DNA of 60,777 nucleotides. Origin: an uncultured Gammaproteobacteria bacterium (lineage in GTDB: Bacteria; Patescibacteriota; Microgenomatia; 2-02-FULL-39-11). Position 1 is the stretch's first letter. Every line of letters starts with the position of its first letter. Positions 52,975 to 60,777 of the stretch are shown in pieces. The notes beneath the pieces are model-generated. The model did no database searches, was not told where the DNA came from, and was given only the letters and a program-made list of their open reading frames with translations. The stretch is taken from NCBI GenBank assembly GCA_964446235.1, contig CAYUNW010000001.1:103837-164613 (forward strand), read 5' to 3'. Both the position numbers and the translations under genes were made by a program.

Positions 52975-55900
52975 CTAACTATTAATAATTGCTCTTTCTT
53001 TTGATACCGGAATGAGCCGACCGATTATAACATTTTCTTTCAATCCTAACAACAAATCTACTCTACCTGTCAAGGATGCGTCTGTTAATACATTTGTTGT
53101 TTCCTGAAATGATGCAGCTGATAACCAGGAATCAGTATATAACGATGCTCTGGTAATTCCCAGTATCACCACTTGAGCAGTGGCAGGCTCTCCACCTTCA
53201 GATAATATTTTTGCATTCTCAGTTTCAAATCTTCTTCTATCAACAAGCTCACCGGGTAATAATACGGTGTCTCCTGCCGTTTCAATTCTAACTTTATCAC
53301 TCATTTTCCTGATAATTACTTCAAAATGCTTATCATTTATCGGAATTCCTTGAGATTTATAGACTTTTTGAATTTCTTCAAGTAAGTACTTCTGAGCGCC
53401 TAACAATCCTCTTATTTGCAAAACTTGTCTTATATCTAAAGATCCGTGGGTAAGCGGGTCTCCTGCCGAAATTAAATCTCCAGTTTTTACGTTTAATTCT
53501 GACGTTTTAGTAACAAAATATGTTCTTTCTTCTACCGGTTTAATTCCTATACTTTTAATGGTTATATCATATCCTGTTTCAACCTCATCAACTGTTACTT
53601 TTCCTGAAATTTCCGCTAATGGTGAAAATACTTTTGGAGTTCTTGCTTCAACTAATTCTTCAACTCTAGGTAATCCCTGTGTAACGTCTAAACCTACAAT
53701 ACCCCCCGCATGTCTAACCCGCATAGTCAATTGAGTACCAGGTTCACCGATTGATTGTGCTGCTAAAATCCCCACGGGAGTACCAATTTCTACAAATTGT
53801 TTTGAAGATAAATCTAATCCATAACAGGAAGCACAAAGTCCTGTTCTTAATTCACATGTTAATGGAGAACGTACTATCACTTCTTTAACTTTACTTAGTC
53901 CAGGTAATTTATTCTCAGTTATCAGTTCTCCCTGTTTAAACAAAACCTTTTTCCCTTCGATCACATCTTTTATCAACACCCGGCCCATGATTTTTACTTC
54001 AAATTCCTCGTTCTTATTTTCCTCACGCACGATAGTAATACCTTCTTTAGTACCGCAATCATCGGTTCGTATAATTGCATCATGTGCTACATCAATCAAT
54101 CTTCTTGTAAGATACCCTGCGTCTGCAGTTTTTAAAGCCGAATCTGTTAATCCTTTTCTTGATCCTCTTGTTGAAGTTACATATTCAAAAATACTTAAAC
54201 CTTCACGATAATTTGATTTTGTGGGTAATTCTACTATTTTCCCCAATGGATCAACTACTAAACCTTTTATGGCGGATAATTGTTTTAATTGATCTTTAGA
54301 TGCTCTAGCGCCTCCGGAATTAATAATTATTTTTACCGGGTTATCATCAGTCATTGCATTCCATGTATCATCTGCAATTTTTTCTGTTACATCTATCCAA
54401 ATCTCATTAGCTAATCTACGTCTTTCTTCGTTGGTTATCAATCCTTGCAGATAATTATTTTCAATTTCTTTTATCTTTTCTTCAGCATTTTTTACTATAT
54501 CATTCTTCTCTTTGATAATAATATTATCGAACACCGACAATGATAATCCCCCTGCTATAGTTGCTCCAAAAAATCCAAAGTCTTTGAATCTATCAATTAA
54601 ATCAGCCACTTCCTCTTTAGGATACATATCATAGGCTGTCTTAATAATTGATTTTATTTTGGATGCTTTAATTGATTCATTGATGTATCTTAATTCTTTC
54701 GGTAATATTTCATTAAATAATATCCTACCAATACTTGTGCGGATAATTTTCCCGTCGATTTTTACCAAAACTGGGCTTCTTAAATCTTTTTTATCTGCCT
54801 GATATGCTAATATTGCTTCCTGTTCATCTGCAAAAATCGGTAATTCTTTATCATCAAAATTATCACTATCAGATCTTAATGATGTTAGATAATAACATCC
54901 CAAAGCCATTTCTTTATTTGGTATCGTAATCGGTGTACCATCGGCTGGTTTTAATAAATTCGACAATGGTAACATTAGCTCGCTTGATTCATTCTGGGAC
55001 TGTTTGGACAATGGAACATGCACAGCCATTTGGTCTCCGTCAAAATCCGCGTTATAACCTGCGCAAACACATGGGTGAATTCTGATTGCCGACCCTTCAA
55101 TCAATATCGGATAAAATGCTTGTATGCCTAATTTATGTAAAGTAGGAGCTCTGTTTAACAAAACAGGATGATTTTTGGTAATCTCTTCTAATATATCAAA
55201 TACTTCTGCTTCTCTCAGTTCTAAAACATTTTTAGCACTCTTTACATTCGGAGCGATCCCCCGAATAATCAACTCTCTTAGTACAAACGGTTTGAATAAT
55301 TCAAGCGCCATCTCTTTCGGCAAACCACACTGTGACAAACTTAATTCAGGTCCCACAACTATTACTGATCTACCTGAATAATCAACTCTTTTACCTAAAA
55401 GATTTTGCCTAAATCTCCCTTGTTTACCTCTCAACATGTCTGATAATGACCTTAACACCTGTGTACTTGCCGTTCGAGAAGTTCTTCTTTGACTTGCATC
55501 GATAAGGGAATCAACAGCTTCCTGTAGCATTCTTTTTTCATTTCTCAAAATAATCTCTGGAGCTCCTAATTCTATCAAATGTTTAAGTCTATTATTGCGA
55601 TTTATAACTCTTCTGTATAAATCATTCAAATCTGATGTAGCAAATTTACCACCAGTTAACTGAACCATCGGCCTCAAATCAGGCGGAATAACCGGTAAAA
55701 CATTCATAATCGTCCAACCAGGATTTATACTGGCAGTTTTTATACCTTCCAAAACATGTAATCTTTTGGTAATTTTTATCTTTTTCTGACCGGATGAGAC
55801 AATTAATTCTTTTCTCAAATCTGCAGTAATTTTAGGGATATCAAAGTTTTTTAAAATTTCATTAATTGCTTCTGCTCCCATACCAACTTTTACATAAGAA

Positions 55901-56688
55901 GAAACACCATACTCTCTTAATTTTAGATATTCATCTTCTGATATAACTGAAAGTGTCTTAATCCTTTTTACCAAATCTGAAATCGTATTAAATATTTCTT
56001 TTGCAGTTTCGTTCTCGCTTTCTTTATCCTCGTTTAAGCTCTTTATTTGTTGTTTCATTTTATATTGCAACTCGTCTACAGCTAAATCTTTTGCTTCTTT
56101 GTTTTTTACTTTTTTATCCAAATCCTTCTCAGCTTTATGAAATTCCTGTTCAATCTCTTTTTCTTTTGATAAATATATTTTATCCCTTTCAACTCTCCTC
56201 TTTTCAAAATTTACTTCTAATGATGAAAGTACTTTCTTTTGTTCTTCTTTATCCACGTTTAAAACTAAATATGAAGAATAGTAAATTATATTTTCCAATG
56301 CTTTTGGGGGAATATCCATAATTAAAGATAGTTTTGATGGACTACCTTTAAAAAACCACACATGAACTACGGGGGCTGCAAGTTTAATATGACCCATTCT
56401 CTCTCTACGTACCTTACTCTGTGTTACCTCTACTCCGCATTTATCACAAATTATTCCTCGGTATCGGATTCTTTTATATTTACCACAGTAACATTCCCAA
56501 TCTTTTGTAGGACCAAAAATTTTCTCGTCAAATAAACCGTCTTTTTCCGGTTTGAGAGTACGATAATTTATTGTTTCAGGTTTGGTAATTTCACCATATG
56601 ACCAAGATAATACATCTTCGCTTGATGCAAGCGTGACCAGTAAAGATGAAAAATCTACAATATTTTGAAAACTACCTTTTTTATCCAT
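52975..56688 (-). CDS. rpoC: RNA polymerase beta' subunit
   Basis: C.CGKY, RERMGHI.LA, GKRVDYSGRSVI, NADFDGDQM, ASFQETT.VL. Confidence 0.99.
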   Translation of the reverse strand: MDKKGSFQNIVDFSSLLVTLASSEDVLSWSYGEITKPETINYRTLKPEKDGLFDEKIFGPTKDWECYCGKYKRIRYRGIICDKCGVEVTQSKVRRERMGHIKLAAPVVHVWFFKGSPSKLSLIMDIPPKALENIIYYSSYLVLNVDKEEQKKVLSSLEVNFEKRRVERDKIYLSKEKEIEQEFHKAEKDLDKKVKNKEAKDLAVDELQYKMKQQIKSLNEDKESENETAKEIFNTISDLVKRIKTLSVISEDEYLKLREYGVSSYVKVGMGAEAINEILKNFDIPKITADLRKELIVSSGQKKIKITKRLHVLEGIKTASINPGWTIMNVLPVIPPDLRPMVQLTGGKFATSDLNDLYRRVINRNNRLKHLIELGAPEIILRNEKRMLQEAVDSLIDASQRRTSRTASTQVLRSLSDMLRGKQGRFRQNLLGKRVDYSGRSVIVVGPELSLSQCGLPKEMALELFKPFVLRELIIRGIAPNVKSAKNVLELREAEVFDILEEITKNHPVLLNRAPTLHKLGIQAFYPILIEGSAIRIHPCVCAGYNADFDGDQMAVHVPLSKQSQNESSELMLPLSNLLKPADGTPITIPNKEMALGCYYLTSLRSDSDNFDDKELPIFADEQEAILAYQADKKDLRSPVLVKIDGKIIRTSIGRILFNEILPKELRYINESIKASKIKSIIKTAYDMYPKEEVADLIDRFKDFGFFGATIAGGLSLSVFDNIIIKEKNDIVKNAEEKIKEIENNYLQGLITNEERRRLANEIWIDVTEKIADDTWNAMTDDNPVKIIINSGGARASKDQLKQLSAIKGLVVDPLGKIVELPTKSNYREGLSIFEYVTSTRGSRKGLTDSALKTADAGYLTRRLIDVAHDAIIRTDDCGTKEGITIVREENKNEEFEVKIMGRVLIKDVIEGKKVLFKQGELITENKLPGLSKVKEVIVRSPLTCELRTGLCASCYGLDLSSKQFVEIGTPVGILAAQSIGEPGTQLTMRVRHAGGIVGLDVTQGLPRVEELVEARTPKVFSPLAEISGKVTVDEVETGYDITIKSIGIKPVEERTYFVTKTSELNVKTGDLISAGDPLTHGSLDIRQVLQIRGLLGAQKYLLEEIQKVYKSQGIPINDKHFEVIIRKMSDKVRIETAGDTVLLPGELVDRRRFETENAKILSEGGEPATAQVVILGITRASLYTDSWLSAASFQETTNVLTDASLTGRVDLLLGLKENVIIGRLIPVSKERAIINS

Positions 56689-56690
56689 TA

Positions 56691-59600
56691 TTAATTCTCC
56701 TCATTGTCTAAATTTTCTTCTGTAATCGGTTTTTCTTCTTGAATTTTCTGTTTCGCTTCTCCTTCTAAATTTTCTTTAATTTCCTCAAGCTTCTTTTCAT
56801 TTTCTGCTTTTTCTTCAGAATTTTCCTGATTTTCACTTTGAATCTGTTTTTGAGCATGAATCACTCCTTGAGGAGTAATTTTAAGACCTAATGCCTGAAG
56901 TTCTTTTACTAAAACTTTAAATGATTCCGGAATTGTCGAGTCTGGAATATCCGTGCCTTTTACAATCGCTTCAAAAGCCCGAGCTCTACCTACTACATCA
57001 TCTGACTTTATAGTTAACATCTCTTGTAGAGTGTAAGCTGCACGATGAGCCTCCAATGCCCAAACTTCCATTTCCCCAAGTCTTTGTCCACCCATCTGAG
57101 CTTTACCGCCGAGAGGTTGTTGTGTAACTAAAGAATAAGGTCCTGTTGATCGAGCATGTGTTTTATCTTCAACCATGTGAATTAATTTCATGATATATGC
57201 AACTCCAACTACCACAGGTTCTTTATATGCTTCACCAGATCTACCGTCAAAAAGAATCGCTTTTCCGTTCAATGGCAAGCCTTGTCTATTATATTCATCG
57301 ACTATCTTACTTTCAGATATTTTTTCAAACACCGGTACGGATACTTTCGTGTTATTTTTCATCATTATCCAACCAAGATGAGCTTCTAATAACTGTCCTA
57401 AATTCATTCTTGATAATACTGATAATGGTGAAATAATAATGTCAACCGGAGTACCATCTTCTAAATACGGCATATCTGACACAGGTACGATATTGCTTAT
57501 TACACCTTTATTACCGTGTCTTCCGGCAAGTTTATCACCAACGACAACTTTCCTAAGCTGAGCAACTTTTACGATAATTTTCTTGATTGTTCCCGGGTGT
57601 AATTCATCACCTTTATCCCTATCTAAAATCTTAACTTCGATCACAACACCTCTCTCACCATGAGGCATACGTAAAGATGTGTCCCTAACTTCTCTTGCTT
57701 TTTCTCCAAAGATTGCTCTAAGAAGTCTTTCTTCAGCTGTCAGTTCTGTTTCACCTTTAGGGGCAATTTTACCTACTAATATATCATTCGGTTCTACTTC
57801 GGCACCTACAACTACTACTCCATAATCATCCAAATTTGCCAATGCTTCTTCACCGACATTGGGTATATCTCTAGTTGTTTCTTCCGGTCCAAGTTTAGTA
57901 TCAACTACTTCAACTTCATATTCCTCAATAGAAATTGAAGTTAAAACATCCTCTTTTACTAGTCTATCTGAAACTACAATAGCATCTTCATATCCCATTC
58001 CATCAAGAGACGCGTATGCAATTACAAGATTTTGACCCAATGCCAGTTCCCCACTTTCCGATGCTGGTGCATCGATTATCACTTGTCCATTTTTAACTTT
58101 TTGTTTAAGAGATACTAAAGGTTTTTGAGAGAAACAAGTATTTTGAGAAGTTCTTTTAAATTTTTCAATATGGTAAACATATTCTTTTTTACTTTTTCCT
58201 TTAAGAATTAATTTTTCAGCATCAACGTATATCACTAAACCATCTTCTGGAGCACACACTGCTCTTTTCAAAGCTAGTGGTACAACCGACTCCATCCCTG
58301 TGCCTACATAAGGTGATTGAGGTTTAACAAGTGGTACTGCTTGACATTGCATATGGGTACCCATAAGTGCTCTATTTGCCTCATCATGAGCAAGAAAAGG
58401 GATTAAAGAAGCAGAAACACCCACAACTTGTCTTGGAATAACGTCGATATAAGAAATATTTGCTGAATCCGTTTCCAAAAAATCGCCTTTATACCTTGCA
58501 GGAACCCGATCATCTAAAATATATCCTCTTTTATCAATATTTACACCTGCATGAGTAATAAACGATCTTCTTTCATCATCTGCTGTCAAATACTCGACTT
58601 TTGAAGTAATCCGTGGTTTGTTTGTTTTTTTATCAAATTCAACCTTACGATATGGTGCTTCTAAAAATCCGTATTCGTTAACTTTGGCGTATAAAGCCAT
58701 ATATGTGACTAGACCAATATTTGGTCCTTCTGGACTTCTTACTGGACAGATTCTTCCATATTGAGACGCATTAATATCTCTAATCGAAAATGAAGCTCTC
58801 TCTCTAGAAATTCCTCCAACTCCCATAACTGTTAATCTTCTTAAGTTGTCAATTTCTGATAAAGGATTAGTCTGGTCTAAAATTGTTGATAACTGACTAG
58901 TCCGGAAGAAATCATTAATTGATGCAATTATAGGTCGGGCATTAACGATTTGACTTGGCATCAAATCCAAATCCGTGCCAACCAAACTCATTCTTTCTTT
59001 AATTGATCTTTCAAGCCTCATTAATCCTAATTTAAAAGCATTTGTTGCTACTAATTCCCCTACCCTTCTGATTCTTCTATTTCCTAAATGATCAATATCA
59101 TCAATATCACCTTCGTTTTTTGTAAGCTTTAATAGATATTTCACTATACCAACGATATCTTCATTTGTTAAAACCCAATTATCTTTATTGTTTTCAATAC
59201 TCAAACCTAATTTCTTATTCATTTTATACCTACCTACTGAACCTAAACTATACCTTCTAGAATTGAAAAAAAGATTTTTTAATAATTCCTGTGCATTATC
59301 CAAAATCGCTGGCTCTCCTGGTCTCATTTTCCGGTAAATCTCAATTACAGCTTCCTGTTGGGTCTTTGACGAATCTTTGGAAAGAGTGCTTTCAATATAT
59401 CTTTTACTCTGTTCATCATCTTTAAAAATATTCATAATCGCTTCATCGCTGTCTATCCCAATAGCTCTCAAAAGCGTGGTAACAGGATGTTTTCTTCTTC
59501 TATCTATTCTGACAGTAACTACATCATTTCTGGATATGGCAAAGTCTAACCAAGAACCAAACAGAGGTCGGACTTCAGCAATATATAGCATTTTTCCTGT

Positions 59601-60068
59601 AACCGGGTCGCGATCACCGGTAAAATAGACTCCAGGAGACCTAACCAACTGATTGACAATACATCTTTCTACTCCATTAATTATAAATGTACCGTTCTCA
59701 GTCATTGTGGGAAAATCACCTAAAAAAACTTCTTGAGCAATCTTTTTACCGGTCTGAAGATTTGTTAAAATTGCTTCAACTTTCAATGGAGAATCATATG
59801 TTAAACCTTTATTTAAACATTCCTCCGTGGAATATCTAGGATTGTTGAAATAATGTTTACCAAAAGCCAAACTCCAATTTTTACCGGTAAAATCATCAAC
59901 AGGAGAAATCTCTTTTATCAACTCGGCTATTCCCTCATTGATAAACCATAAATATGATTCTTTTTGTACAGCAATTAAATCAAGCTTTGGAAGTTCAACA
60001 TTGGTTTCTACCCAATTTATTCTTGTAGAGGCAGTATGCGATTGATTATTATTCTTATTCTTTGGCAT
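56691..60068 (-). CDS. rpoB: RNA polymerase beta subunit
   Basis: FIING.ER..V.QL.RSPG, DIDHLGNRR, PEGPNIGL, GDKLAGRHGNKGV, GGQR.GEMEVWALEA. Confidence 0.99.
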   Translation of the reverse strand: MPKNKNNNQSHTASTRINWVETNVELPKLDLIAVQKESYLWFINEGIAELIKEISPVDDFTGKNWSLAFGKHYFNNPRYSTEECLNKGLTYDSPLKVEAILTNLQTGKKIAQEVFLGDFPTMTENGTFIINGVERCIVNQLVRSPGVYFTGDRDPVTGKMLYIAEVRPLFGSWLDFAISRNDVVTVRIDRRRKHPVTTLLRAIGIDSDEAIMNIFKDDEQSKRYIESTLSKDSSKTQQEAVIEIYRKMRPGEPAILDNAQELLKNLFFNSRRYSLGSVGRYKMNKKLGLSIENNKDNWVLTNEDIVGIVKYLLKLTKNEGDIDDIDHLGNRRIRRVGELVATNAFKLGLMRLERSIKERMSLVGTDLDLMPSQIVNARPIIASINDFFRTSQLSTILDQTNPLSEIDNLRRLTVMGVGGISRERASFSIRDINASQYGRICPVRSPEGPNIGLVTYMALYAKVNEYGFLEAPYRKVEFDKKTNKPRITSKVEYLTADDERRSFITHAGVNIDKRGYILDDRVPARYKGDFLETDSANISYIDVIPRQVVGVSASLIPFLAHDEANRALMGTHMQCQAVPLVKPQSPYVGTGMESVVPLALKRAVCAPEDGLVIYVDAEKLILKGKSKKEYVYHIEKFKRTSQNTCFSQKPLVSLKQKVKNGQVIIDAPASESGELALGQNLVIAYASLDGMGYEDAIVVSDRLVKEDVLTSISIEEYEVEVVDTKLGPEETTRDIPNVGEEALANLDDYGVVVVGAEVEPNDILVGKIAPKGETELTAEERLLRAIFGEKAREVRDTSLRMPHGERGVVIEVKILDRDKGDELHPGTIKKIIVKVAQLRKVVVGDKLAGRHGNKGVISNIVPVSDMPYLEDGTPVDIIISPLSVLSRMNLGQLLEAHLGWIMMKNNTKVSVPVFEKISESKIVDEYNRQGLPLNGKAILFDGRSGEAYKEPVVVGVAYIMKLIHMVEDKTHARSTGPYSLVTQQPLGGKAQMGGQRLGEMEVWALEAHRAAYTLQEMLTIKSDDVVGRARAFEAIVKGTDIPDSTIPESFKVLVKELQALGLKITPQGVIHAQKQIQSENQENSEEKAENEKKLEEIKENLEGEAKQKIQEEKPITEENLDNEEN

Positions 60069-60100
60069 CGGGAGAATCTAGATGTTATCTAATTTATCAA

Positions 60101-60141
60101 AAGAAAAAAAGCGTACAGAGACCGTACGCCTCTCGCTTTTT
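60101..60141 (-). terminator. Leader terminator upstream of rpoB, with an alternative fold
   Basis: GCGUAC-GGUCUCU-GUACGC followed by U7. Alternative pairing AAAAAGCG-AGAG with CUCU-(GUA)-CGCUUUUU. Confidence 0.7.
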
Positions 60142-60153
60142 ATCTTTTAAAGG

Positions 60154-60182
60154 ATTTTAAACTATCTTAATATACTTGTCAA
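60154..60182 (-). promoter_or_regulatory. rpoB promoter
   Basis: TTGACA (60182-60177), 17 nt, TAAAAT (60159-60154). Confidence 0.75.
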
Positions 60183-60205
60183 GGATATAAATTTTATGTT
60201 AAAAT
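60176..60205 (+). promoter_or_regulatory. nusA promoter
   Basis: TTGTCA, 18 nt, TAAAAT, with TGn extension. Confidence 0.6.
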
Positions 60206-60236
60206 AGTATTTAAGAATTTTGTTTATTTATATTTG

Positions 60237-60261
60237 TGGTGGGAATCTCCCACCAATTTTT
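60237..60261 (+). terminator. rimP-leader-like hairpin upstream of nusA
   Basis: UGGUGGGA-AUC-UCCCACCA followed by AUUUUU. Confidence 0.6.
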
Positions 60262-60278
60262 ATAATTGAATAAAAAAT

Positions 60279-60777
60279 ATGCCAGCAACTATTAAATCAG
60301 AATTTGCACTTGCTCTTAATCAGGTAGCGACTGAAAGAGGAATTGATCCAAATATTGTCCTAGAAACCATACAAGCCGCAATTCTTGCTGCATATAGAAA
60401 AGACTATGGATCAAAAGAATTAGAAGAAATTGAAGTTGAAATAAATCCAAAAAATGGTGAAGCTAGATTATTTAAAAATAAAAAAGACATCACACCGCCA
60501 GGATTCGGCAGAATCGCTGCTCAAACAGCAAAACAAGTCATTTTACAAAGAATAAGAGAAGCCGAAAAAAAAGCAATTATCGATGATTTTTCACAAAAAG
60601 TCGGTTTAGTAGCAAATGGTATGATTTTAAGATTTGATGGTCAAAATATCATTGTCGATATCGGCAGAACCGAAGCAATTTTACCTCCTCAAGAACAGAC
60701 TACAAATGAAAAATACCGTCTTAATCAAAGATTAGCTTTTTACATTGCTGATATTAACCATAGTCAAAGAGGAGATA
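60279..60777 (+). CDS. nusA: Transcription factor NusA (partial; runs off the window)
   Basis: Hand translation MPATIKSEFALALNQVATERGID...GFGRIAAQTAKQVILQRIREAE...VDIGRTEAILP. Confidence 0.96.
   Translation, partial: MPATIKSEFALALNQVATERGIDPNIVLETIQAAILAAYRKDYGSKELEEIEVEINPKNGEARLFKNKKDITPPGFGRIAAQTAKQVILQRIREAEKKAIIDDFSQKVGLVANGMILRFDGQNIIVDIGRTEAILPPQEQTTNEKYRLNQRLAFYIADINHSQRGD

Follow-up and report, generated by a model that had tools for sequence, protein, structure and literature searches.

To our knowledge, the control of RNA polymerase level is understood in only a few model species. Expression of rpoBC in Escherichia coli is autogenously regulated at both the transcriptional and the translational level (PMC4670729). 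The rplL-rpoB attenuator of this organism, a terminator-type element located just 5' of rpoB, limits transcription into rpoBC and lies inside a long transcript from ribosomal-protein promoters, where it uncouples L10/L12 from beta/beta'. In Lactobacillales and Rhodobacterales, the lineage-restricted RNA structures Lacto-rpoB (RF01709) and Rhodo-rpoB are found upstream of rpoB and are presumed to be cis-regulatory by a mechanism that is unknown (PMC5737381; PMC2864571), and the mycobacterial rpoB-rpoC genes possess dedicated promoters whose architecture tunes the RpoB level (PMC6181997). Control through a leader or an attenuator of rpoB is thus not a new principle, and the element described here before rpoB is a real, apparently undescribed variant of this known type of control.

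The window analysed, i.e. the whole stretch of 60,777 nucleotides from an ultra-small member of the Gottesmanbacteria, of the groundwater type, carries rpoB (1125 aa, 56691-60068) and rpoC (1237 aa, 52975-56688) on the minus strand according to its list of open reading frames, and more minus-strand ORFs downstream of rpoC reach to ∼39628. Going by order and length only, these ORFs are probably rpsL, rpsG, fusA, tuf and the S10/spc genes, and the rpoBC operon probably extends to the ribosomal-protein genes of the str, S10 and spc groups. The 5' part of nusA (60279-60777, plus strand) is divergent from rpoB, with an intergenic region of 210 bp (60069-60278) between the two. As rplJ-rplL are located on a separate contig (C3:106704-107673; rpoB is on C1), rpoBC are not contained in an rplKAJL transcript in this genome, and the leader does not lie between rplL and rpoB of an rplKAJL-rpoBC transcript as it does in E. 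coli. The proposal of the first-pass annotation that rpoBC has its own promoter was borne out by the divergent orientation of nusA, the position of rplJL elsewhere and the conservation of the promoter at a fixed distance.

A sequence scan placed the −35 hexamer of the rpoBC promoter (TTGACA) at 60177-60182 and, with a 17-nt spacer, its −10 hexamer (TAAAAT) at 60154-60159, both on the minus strand, from which a transcription start at about 60148-60146 is predicted. An A-rich stretch separates the −10 hexamer from the leader hairpin (60110-60130, minus strand), whose 5' arm extends from G60130 to C60124 and whose 3' arm extends from G60116 to U60110. The hairpin reads GGCGUACGG-UCU-CUGUACGCU from 60130 to 60110 on the minus strand. 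In its conserved 7-bp core GGCGUAC (60130-60124) pairs with GUACGCU (60116-60110), and two extra pairs specific to the window lengthen the stem to 9 bp and leave UCU (60121-60119) as the loop. The U-rich tail U7-C-U4 (60099-60110, minus strand) comprises U7 at 60110-60104, a C, and U4 up to 60099, followed by G60098, and the rpoB AUG (60068) lies ∼30-31 nt past the end of this tail. Every element initially noted at this locus, namely TTGACA-17-TAAAAT, a terminator hairpin with U7 and then rpoB, is present on the minus strand.

Although the promoter matches the consensus at 11 of 12 positions, promoter-like matches in the AT-rich DNA scanned numbered five as against 4.7 expected, so that the match alone is at chance level; the promoter and hairpin were judged to be beyond chance because they are conserved in relatives, and not from the promoter match itself. 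Three terminator-like hairpin sites, including the rpoB leader hairpin, were found in the stretch scanned compared with 0.5 expected in shuffled sequences, and the 101-nt leader folds at −25.4 kcal/mol (z = −3.8 versus shuffles). TTGATA-14-TAGATT, the sole further promoter candidate in the segment from the U-tract to the AUG, was rejected for its wrong spacing and its lack of conservation. A leader peptide was likewise discarded, as the leader has no AUG and an in-frame extension 5' of the rpoB AUG stops after three codons.

In functional terms, the rplL-rpoB attenuator of E. coli comes nearest to the element. In contrast to the latter, rplJL are unlinked here, the candidate terminator is placed ∼15-20 nt past the own, and apparently only, promoter of rpoBC, and there is no sequence similarity between the two. 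Like Lacto-rpoB and Rhodo-rpoB, the element is a conserved RNA that consistently precedes rpoB, whereas those motifs occur in other phyla and have other structures than the single short hairpin with a U-tail seen here. It belongs to neither of these Rfam families: when 59900-60400 was compared with Rfam 15 by cmscan, 13 matches at chance level were listed up to E = 10, none of them to Lacto-rpoB or Rhodo-rpoB. The mycobacterial rpoB-rpoC genes are also transcribed from their own promoters, but are regulated through interference of two tandem promoters and not with a leader hairpin and U-tract.

With the N-terminal 200 residues of RpoB as query, the upstream regions of rpoB were gathered from 40 relatives. 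Almost all displayed the same promoter layout, in which TTGACA and TAnAAT are spaced by 16-19 nt and the −10 is mostly extended by TG, and the −35 hexamer was TTGACA or TTGACT in 36/36 distinct rpoB leaders. The −10 hexamer is followed in the relatives by 15-27 nt of variable, A-rich sequence and then by the stem, (A/G)GCGUAC and GUACGC(U/C), which encloses a variable loop of 5-11 nt. In all Gottesmanbacteria examined, the consensus promoter precedes GGCGUAC-loop(5-11 nt)-GUACGCU-UUaUUUUGUyGU and then rpoB; the tail consensus of this family is UUaUUUUGUyGUUUUU, and relatives carry the interrupted tail form UUNUUUUG. When 27 sequences were aligned, 99.5% of the cells of the 7-bp helix were paired, as compared with only 18-50% when the 3' partner was slid by one to three columns as a control.

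A covariance model (R1) built from this 27-sequence alignment was used to search the class at E ≤ 0.01 with strict filters, and matches were obtained in 78/301 Microgenomatia genomes, with one match per genome in all but three. Among the best 30 of these matches, 30/30 were located directly upstream of rpoB, and the element of the window itself scored 39.6 bits. The first-pass annotation had made its proposal depend on conservation of the hairpin, and the hairpin is indeed kept in the rpoB leaders of relatives, both in the 36 distinct leaders and in the genomes matched by R1. A sample of 401 genomes from the whole phylum gave only weak matches outside the class (28-33 bits). None of ten such loci inspected was within 1.5 kb of rpoB; these loci were mostly gene-end-terminator-like, and two were promoter-hairpin-U-tract units elsewhere. 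Among 26 genomes of other Patescibacteria classes, the rpoB upstream regions were heterogeneous, with frequent Shine-Dalgarno sequences and no shared hairpin. In the genome under study, one other GCGTAC-N-GTACGC site was present (contig C33), a chance match with no evident link to rpoB.

When one genome of each species was scanned for the exact pattern, its occurrence with rpoB was confined to metagenome-assembled genomes titled Candidatus Gottesmanbacteria, Microgenomates or Patescibacteria, plus a few apparently mislabelled contigs. Four records (L066, L077, L081 and L084, i.e. CAYIFB010000003.1, CAZFNL010000115.1, CAZJBV010000010.1 and CAZGTJ010000272.1) are titled 'uncultured Gammaproteobacteria' or 'Methanosarcinales archaeon'. 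They contain a Gottesmanbacteria-type rpoB with 68-72% identity to the N-terminus of the window RpoB and a matching leader, and are probably mislabelled or mis-binned.

The stem GGCGUAC/GUACGCU is nearly frozen in 21/36 distinct leaders, and the remaining variation preserves pairing. A compensatory variant, GCGAAC/GUUCGC, occurs in three families (f28, f16 and f9), GCGUAU/AUACGC and GCGUAA/UUACGC are further pairing-preserving variants, and GUGCGC and GUAUGC lead to G·U pairs. More distant families of the class have, at the same position after the promoter, stems with unrelated arms, such as ACGGACA/UGUCCGU, CUAGGCG/CGCCUGG, GCCGGU/ACCGGU, AGCACCCGC/GUGGGCGCU and GAGAGAC/GUCUCUC, and a U-rich tail of the form UUUUG(Y)(Y)GU comes after each of them. 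A simple test for a hairpin plus U-tract was passed by 40/46 distinct leaders of the class, and both the length (5-11 nt) and the sequence of the loop are free to vary between leaders. By sequence comparison, selection has acted on a transcribed hairpin that directly abuts a U-tail and has the shape of an intrinsic terminator.

The stem-loop is stable and contains G+C pairs (−11.5 kcal/mol for the 9-bp stem of the window; median of the relatives −9.1), and a U-tract follows directly 3' of the stem, U7CUUUU in the window and UUNUUUUG in the relatives. Terminator-like sites at the 3' ends of genes in this genome had a median of −10.5 kcal/mol (n = 19 only), which places the leader hairpin in mid-range, a position that is uninformative as to its leakiness. 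Nine exact pattern matches were encountered in non-CPR genomes (Pedobacter, Paenibacillus, Prevotella and others), away from rpoB and with T7 runs, one of them directly 3' of a tRNA-like sequence. As these appear to be ordinary terminators, the hairpin sequence is probably of a terminator-competent type. Of the 69 strict consensus promoters of this genome, only four (those of rpoB, 16S rRNA, nrdR and one small ORF) are followed by a proximal hairpin, and a promoter-proximal hairpin is therefore not a genome-wide habit. Two of these units are found on contig C3: the promoter-hairpin-U-tract at C3:90555 (plus strand) precedes a putative nrdR, as taken from its N-terminal sequence, and that at C3:4226 (plus strand) precedes a 137-aa ORF.

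We favour the reading, with a probability of roughly 0.6, that the rpoBC leader contains a promoter-proximal attenuator of the intrinsic-terminator type that is conserved across Microgenomatia and has no conserved antiterminator. The near-consensus sigma-70 promoter would start transcription ∼15-20 nt 5' of the short, G·U-closed hairpin, and at the interrupted U-rich tail that follows (UUNUUUUG...) some polymerases would pause and release a ∼45-nt RNA. The remaining polymerases would read through into rpoB, and the read-through fraction would set polymerase synthesis, so that the hairpin probably acts as a built-in brake. The output would be determined by the efficiency of a sub-optimal terminator, through the rate of elongation, the supply of NTPs or the action of NusA, NusG or other general factors, and not by a two-state switch of the ligand type. 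Transcription from the promoter, termination and its modulators are here all deduced from the sequence. Patescibacteria (CPR) have tiny genomes with few recognizable regulators. A class-wide, single-copy rpoBC leader element would offer a concrete handle on polymerase homeostasis in these uncultured bacteria, and at only ∼50 nt the rpoB leader would represent a compact natural case of a promoter-proximal terminator without an antiterminator.

Possible modulators are suggested by the details of the hairpin base and the tail. The terminal stem pair was G·U in 20, A-U in four and G-C in three of the 27 aligned sequences, and a TTNTTT reaches from the stem base into the proximal U-tract, the tail being TT[A/C/G]TTT with distal G/Y interruptions. 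NusG- and NusA-dependent terminators of Bacillus subtilis are characterized by a weak terminal pair, TTNTTT and distal interruptions of the U-tract (PMC8060035). The rpoB leader displays each of these sequence features; the likeness comprises a sub-optimal hairpin with a G·U or A-U base, TTNTTT and an interrupted U-tract, and the B. subtilis set includes leader terminators. On account of this match, the leader may reasonably be supposed, by analogy, to depend on elongation rate or general elongation factors. The NusG of relatives carries SWLAVRTTPGVT and that of B. subtilis SWYVVRNTPGVT at the same place, and this only partial match to the pause-competent residues counts against the attenuator. 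The NGN domain of NusG (PF02357) was not found in the present, ∼90%-complete assembly but was present in 13/14 relatives; nusG probably lies in the missing ∼10%. The rplJ-rplL genes on C3 (region C3:101500-108500) have no nusG-rplKA upstream.

Three further observations weigh against an attenuator. First, the stem is conserved in sequence across many families, although a plain terminator needs pairing only. Second, a terminator placed after the sole promoter of genes that are essential and highly expressed has to leak or to be relieved in some way, and no reliever was identified. Third, four rpoB leaders (L106 and L108 of family f3, L087 of family f14, and L107) have two hairpins, of which the first, at the conserved position, has a weak or absent U-tract, and the second, downstream, is stronger and carries U7. 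As some leaders separate the hairpin from a stronger terminator or lack an adjacent U-tract, the conserved hairpin may have a role of its own.

In a competing explanation, the hairpin would serve chiefly for recognition or stability, either as a 5' stem-loop bound by a protein (an operon product, RNA polymerase or a Nus factor) or as a protection of the mRNA 5' end, and termination would be incidental or absent. In such a case, the U-rich tail would be a single-stranded platform, e.g. for S1-type ribosome loading at a start without a Shine-Dalgarno sequence. The nearly frozen stem speaks for this explanation, as do the L107 hairpin with no adjacent U-tract and the separate, stronger terminator of L106, L108 and L087. 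The start codon is also in its favour: UUCUCCCG directly 5' of the rpoB AUG (60069-60077, minus strand) contains no Shine-Dalgarno sequence, and the start nevertheless has a conserved context, UUCCC(A/G)AUG, in the Gottesmanbacteria family. UUCCC(A/G)AUG is not the general start-codon context in this genome, which has 73 TCCCRATG sites in total. However, the U-rich tail abuts the stem in almost all leaders, even where the stem has been fully replaced, the loop varies freely in length and sequence, no binding partner is suggested, and rRNA mimicry (23S) found no support. We regard a main role in recognition or stability as unlikely, at perhaps one chance in five.

With respect to rRNA mimicry, the 23S rRNA gene on contig C6 (∼C6:7161-7178, minus strand) has GGAGGCGUACAAAGG, which shares 9-10 nt with the 5' arm of the hairpin and its flank. 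Mimicry was rejected, as the 23S rRNA stays GCGUAC in the f28 and f16 genomes despite their GCGAAC/GUUCGC leader stem, and the two 23S segments form no helix; the identity is probably a coincidence.

A broader and somewhat less probable variant, which we put forward as speculation, combines the leader terminator with a contact function of the stem. It assumes a small 'attenuon', i.e. minimal leader terminators placed before genes of the expression machinery and read by the transcription machinery, in which the conserved stem would be a specific contact for a product of these operons. Candidates in this genome would be the leaders of rpoBC, nusA and 16S rRNA, and the readers would be NusA, NusG, or the concentration and speed of polymerase. 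If true, these regulator-poor bacteria would need no dedicated repressors to keep polymerase, Nus factors and ribosomes in balance.

The first-pass annotation had suggested a two-state attenuator, in which a segment upstream of the hairpin pairs with the loop and 3' region and disrupts the terminator stem, the balance being set by polymerase speed or NusA level. The alternative pairing does exist in the window. This fold (60111-60136, minus strand) joins GCG (60136-34) to CGC (60113-11) and AGAGGC (60133-28) to GUCUCU (60122-17), with a GUA bulge, and is nearly isoenergetic with the 9-bp hairpin (−10.4 to −11.3 versus −11.5 kcal/mol). In prefix folding its inner hairpin even appears first. Its supposed effect on the terminator did not hold, since both folds finish in ...CGC immediately 5' of the U-tract and are both terminator-competent, and the alternative fold is hence not an antiterminator here. 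The global minimum-energy fold of the leader adds a long pairing between the A-tract and the U-tract, which cannot yet have formed when termination takes place, as the polymerase still encloses the U-tract at that point.

Nor is there a conserved switch, as no conserved structure that excludes the terminator was found. Once the 3' arm has been made, 25/27 leaders have their energy minimum at the terminator stem; in the two exceptions, L002 and L003, the minimum lies with the alternative fold, which leaves CGCU unpaired. Permutation of the loops among 34 leaders did reveal a stronger upstream-to-loop pairing with the native than with swapped loops (−4.3 versus −3.3 kcal/mol; 0/5000 permutations). 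However, these pairings differ by lineage (AGAGGC/GUCU, ACUCAGA/UUUGAGU, AGAGA/UCUCU, GACA/UGUC) and are missing in about half of the species, several of which rank 33 of 33, and the signal rests on a few inherited cases. It is possible that upstream-to-loop pairing serves as fine-tuning of folding and not as a conserved switch. A role for NusA level could be read from the position of nusA as the divergent neighbour of rpoB, but this arrangement was present in 15/30 of the relatives' loci and the leader element is also kept by families that lack an adjacent nusA. Taken with the exceptions and the permutation signal on one side and the shared end point of both folds on the other, a two-state attenuator appears improbable.

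A small trans-acting RNA, with the ∼45-nt terminated transcript as its product and rpoB expressed by mere read-through, would fit the layout of a strong promoter, hairpin and U-tract, but is very hard to reconcile with an element that always stands directly before rpoB, the lack of an alternative rpoB promoter in the 210-bp intergenic region, and the fact that the would-be seed parts (loop and 5' region) are the least conserved. A palindromic DNA operator, GCGTAC...GTACGC, bound by a repressor at about +15 to +40 could account for a sequence-conserved inverted repeat just 3' of the promoter, yet a half-site spacing of 5-11 bp unfit for a dimeric DNA-binding protein, half-sites that change complementarily or are replaced by unrelated complementary arms in distant families, and the strand-specific U-rich tail conserved alongside the repeat make it highly implausible.

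Returning to the preferred reading of a leader terminator without a conserved antiterminator, antitermination of the boxA type was considered and rejected, since the rpoB tail CGCUUUUUUUCUUUUGAU is unlike the rrn boxA elements of this genome. The latter are represented by GCACUUUGACAA in the 16S leader and UGCUCUUUAAAAA upstream of the 23S gene on contig C6. In the 16S rRNA leader (contig C14:10481-10700), a consensus promoter is followed by the hairpin ACCCGC/GCGGGU and UUUUUUGUCUU, and the boxA-like sequence is situated between this terminator-like hairpin and the 16S gene.

On the other side of the intergenic region, and outside the rpoB element, a sequence scan detected a divergent nusA promoter, TTGTCA-18-TAAAAT (60176-60205, plus strand). 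Before the nusA AUG (60279), a leader hairpin, UGGUGGGAAUCUCCCACCA, followed by AUUUUU occupies 60237-60255 of the plus strand, and this leader (UGGUGGG-N4-5-CCCACCA and AUUUUU) is near letter-identical in all members of the family with a divergent nusA. By analogy with NusA autoregulation, it may be a leader terminator as well. The −35 hexamers of rpoB (TTGACA, minus strand) and nusA (TTGTCA, plus strand) overlap within the palindrome CTTGTCAAG (60175-60183). As the CTTGACAAG core of the overlapping −35 hexamers recurs in many members of the family, the rpoB and nusA promoters may compete for polymerase.
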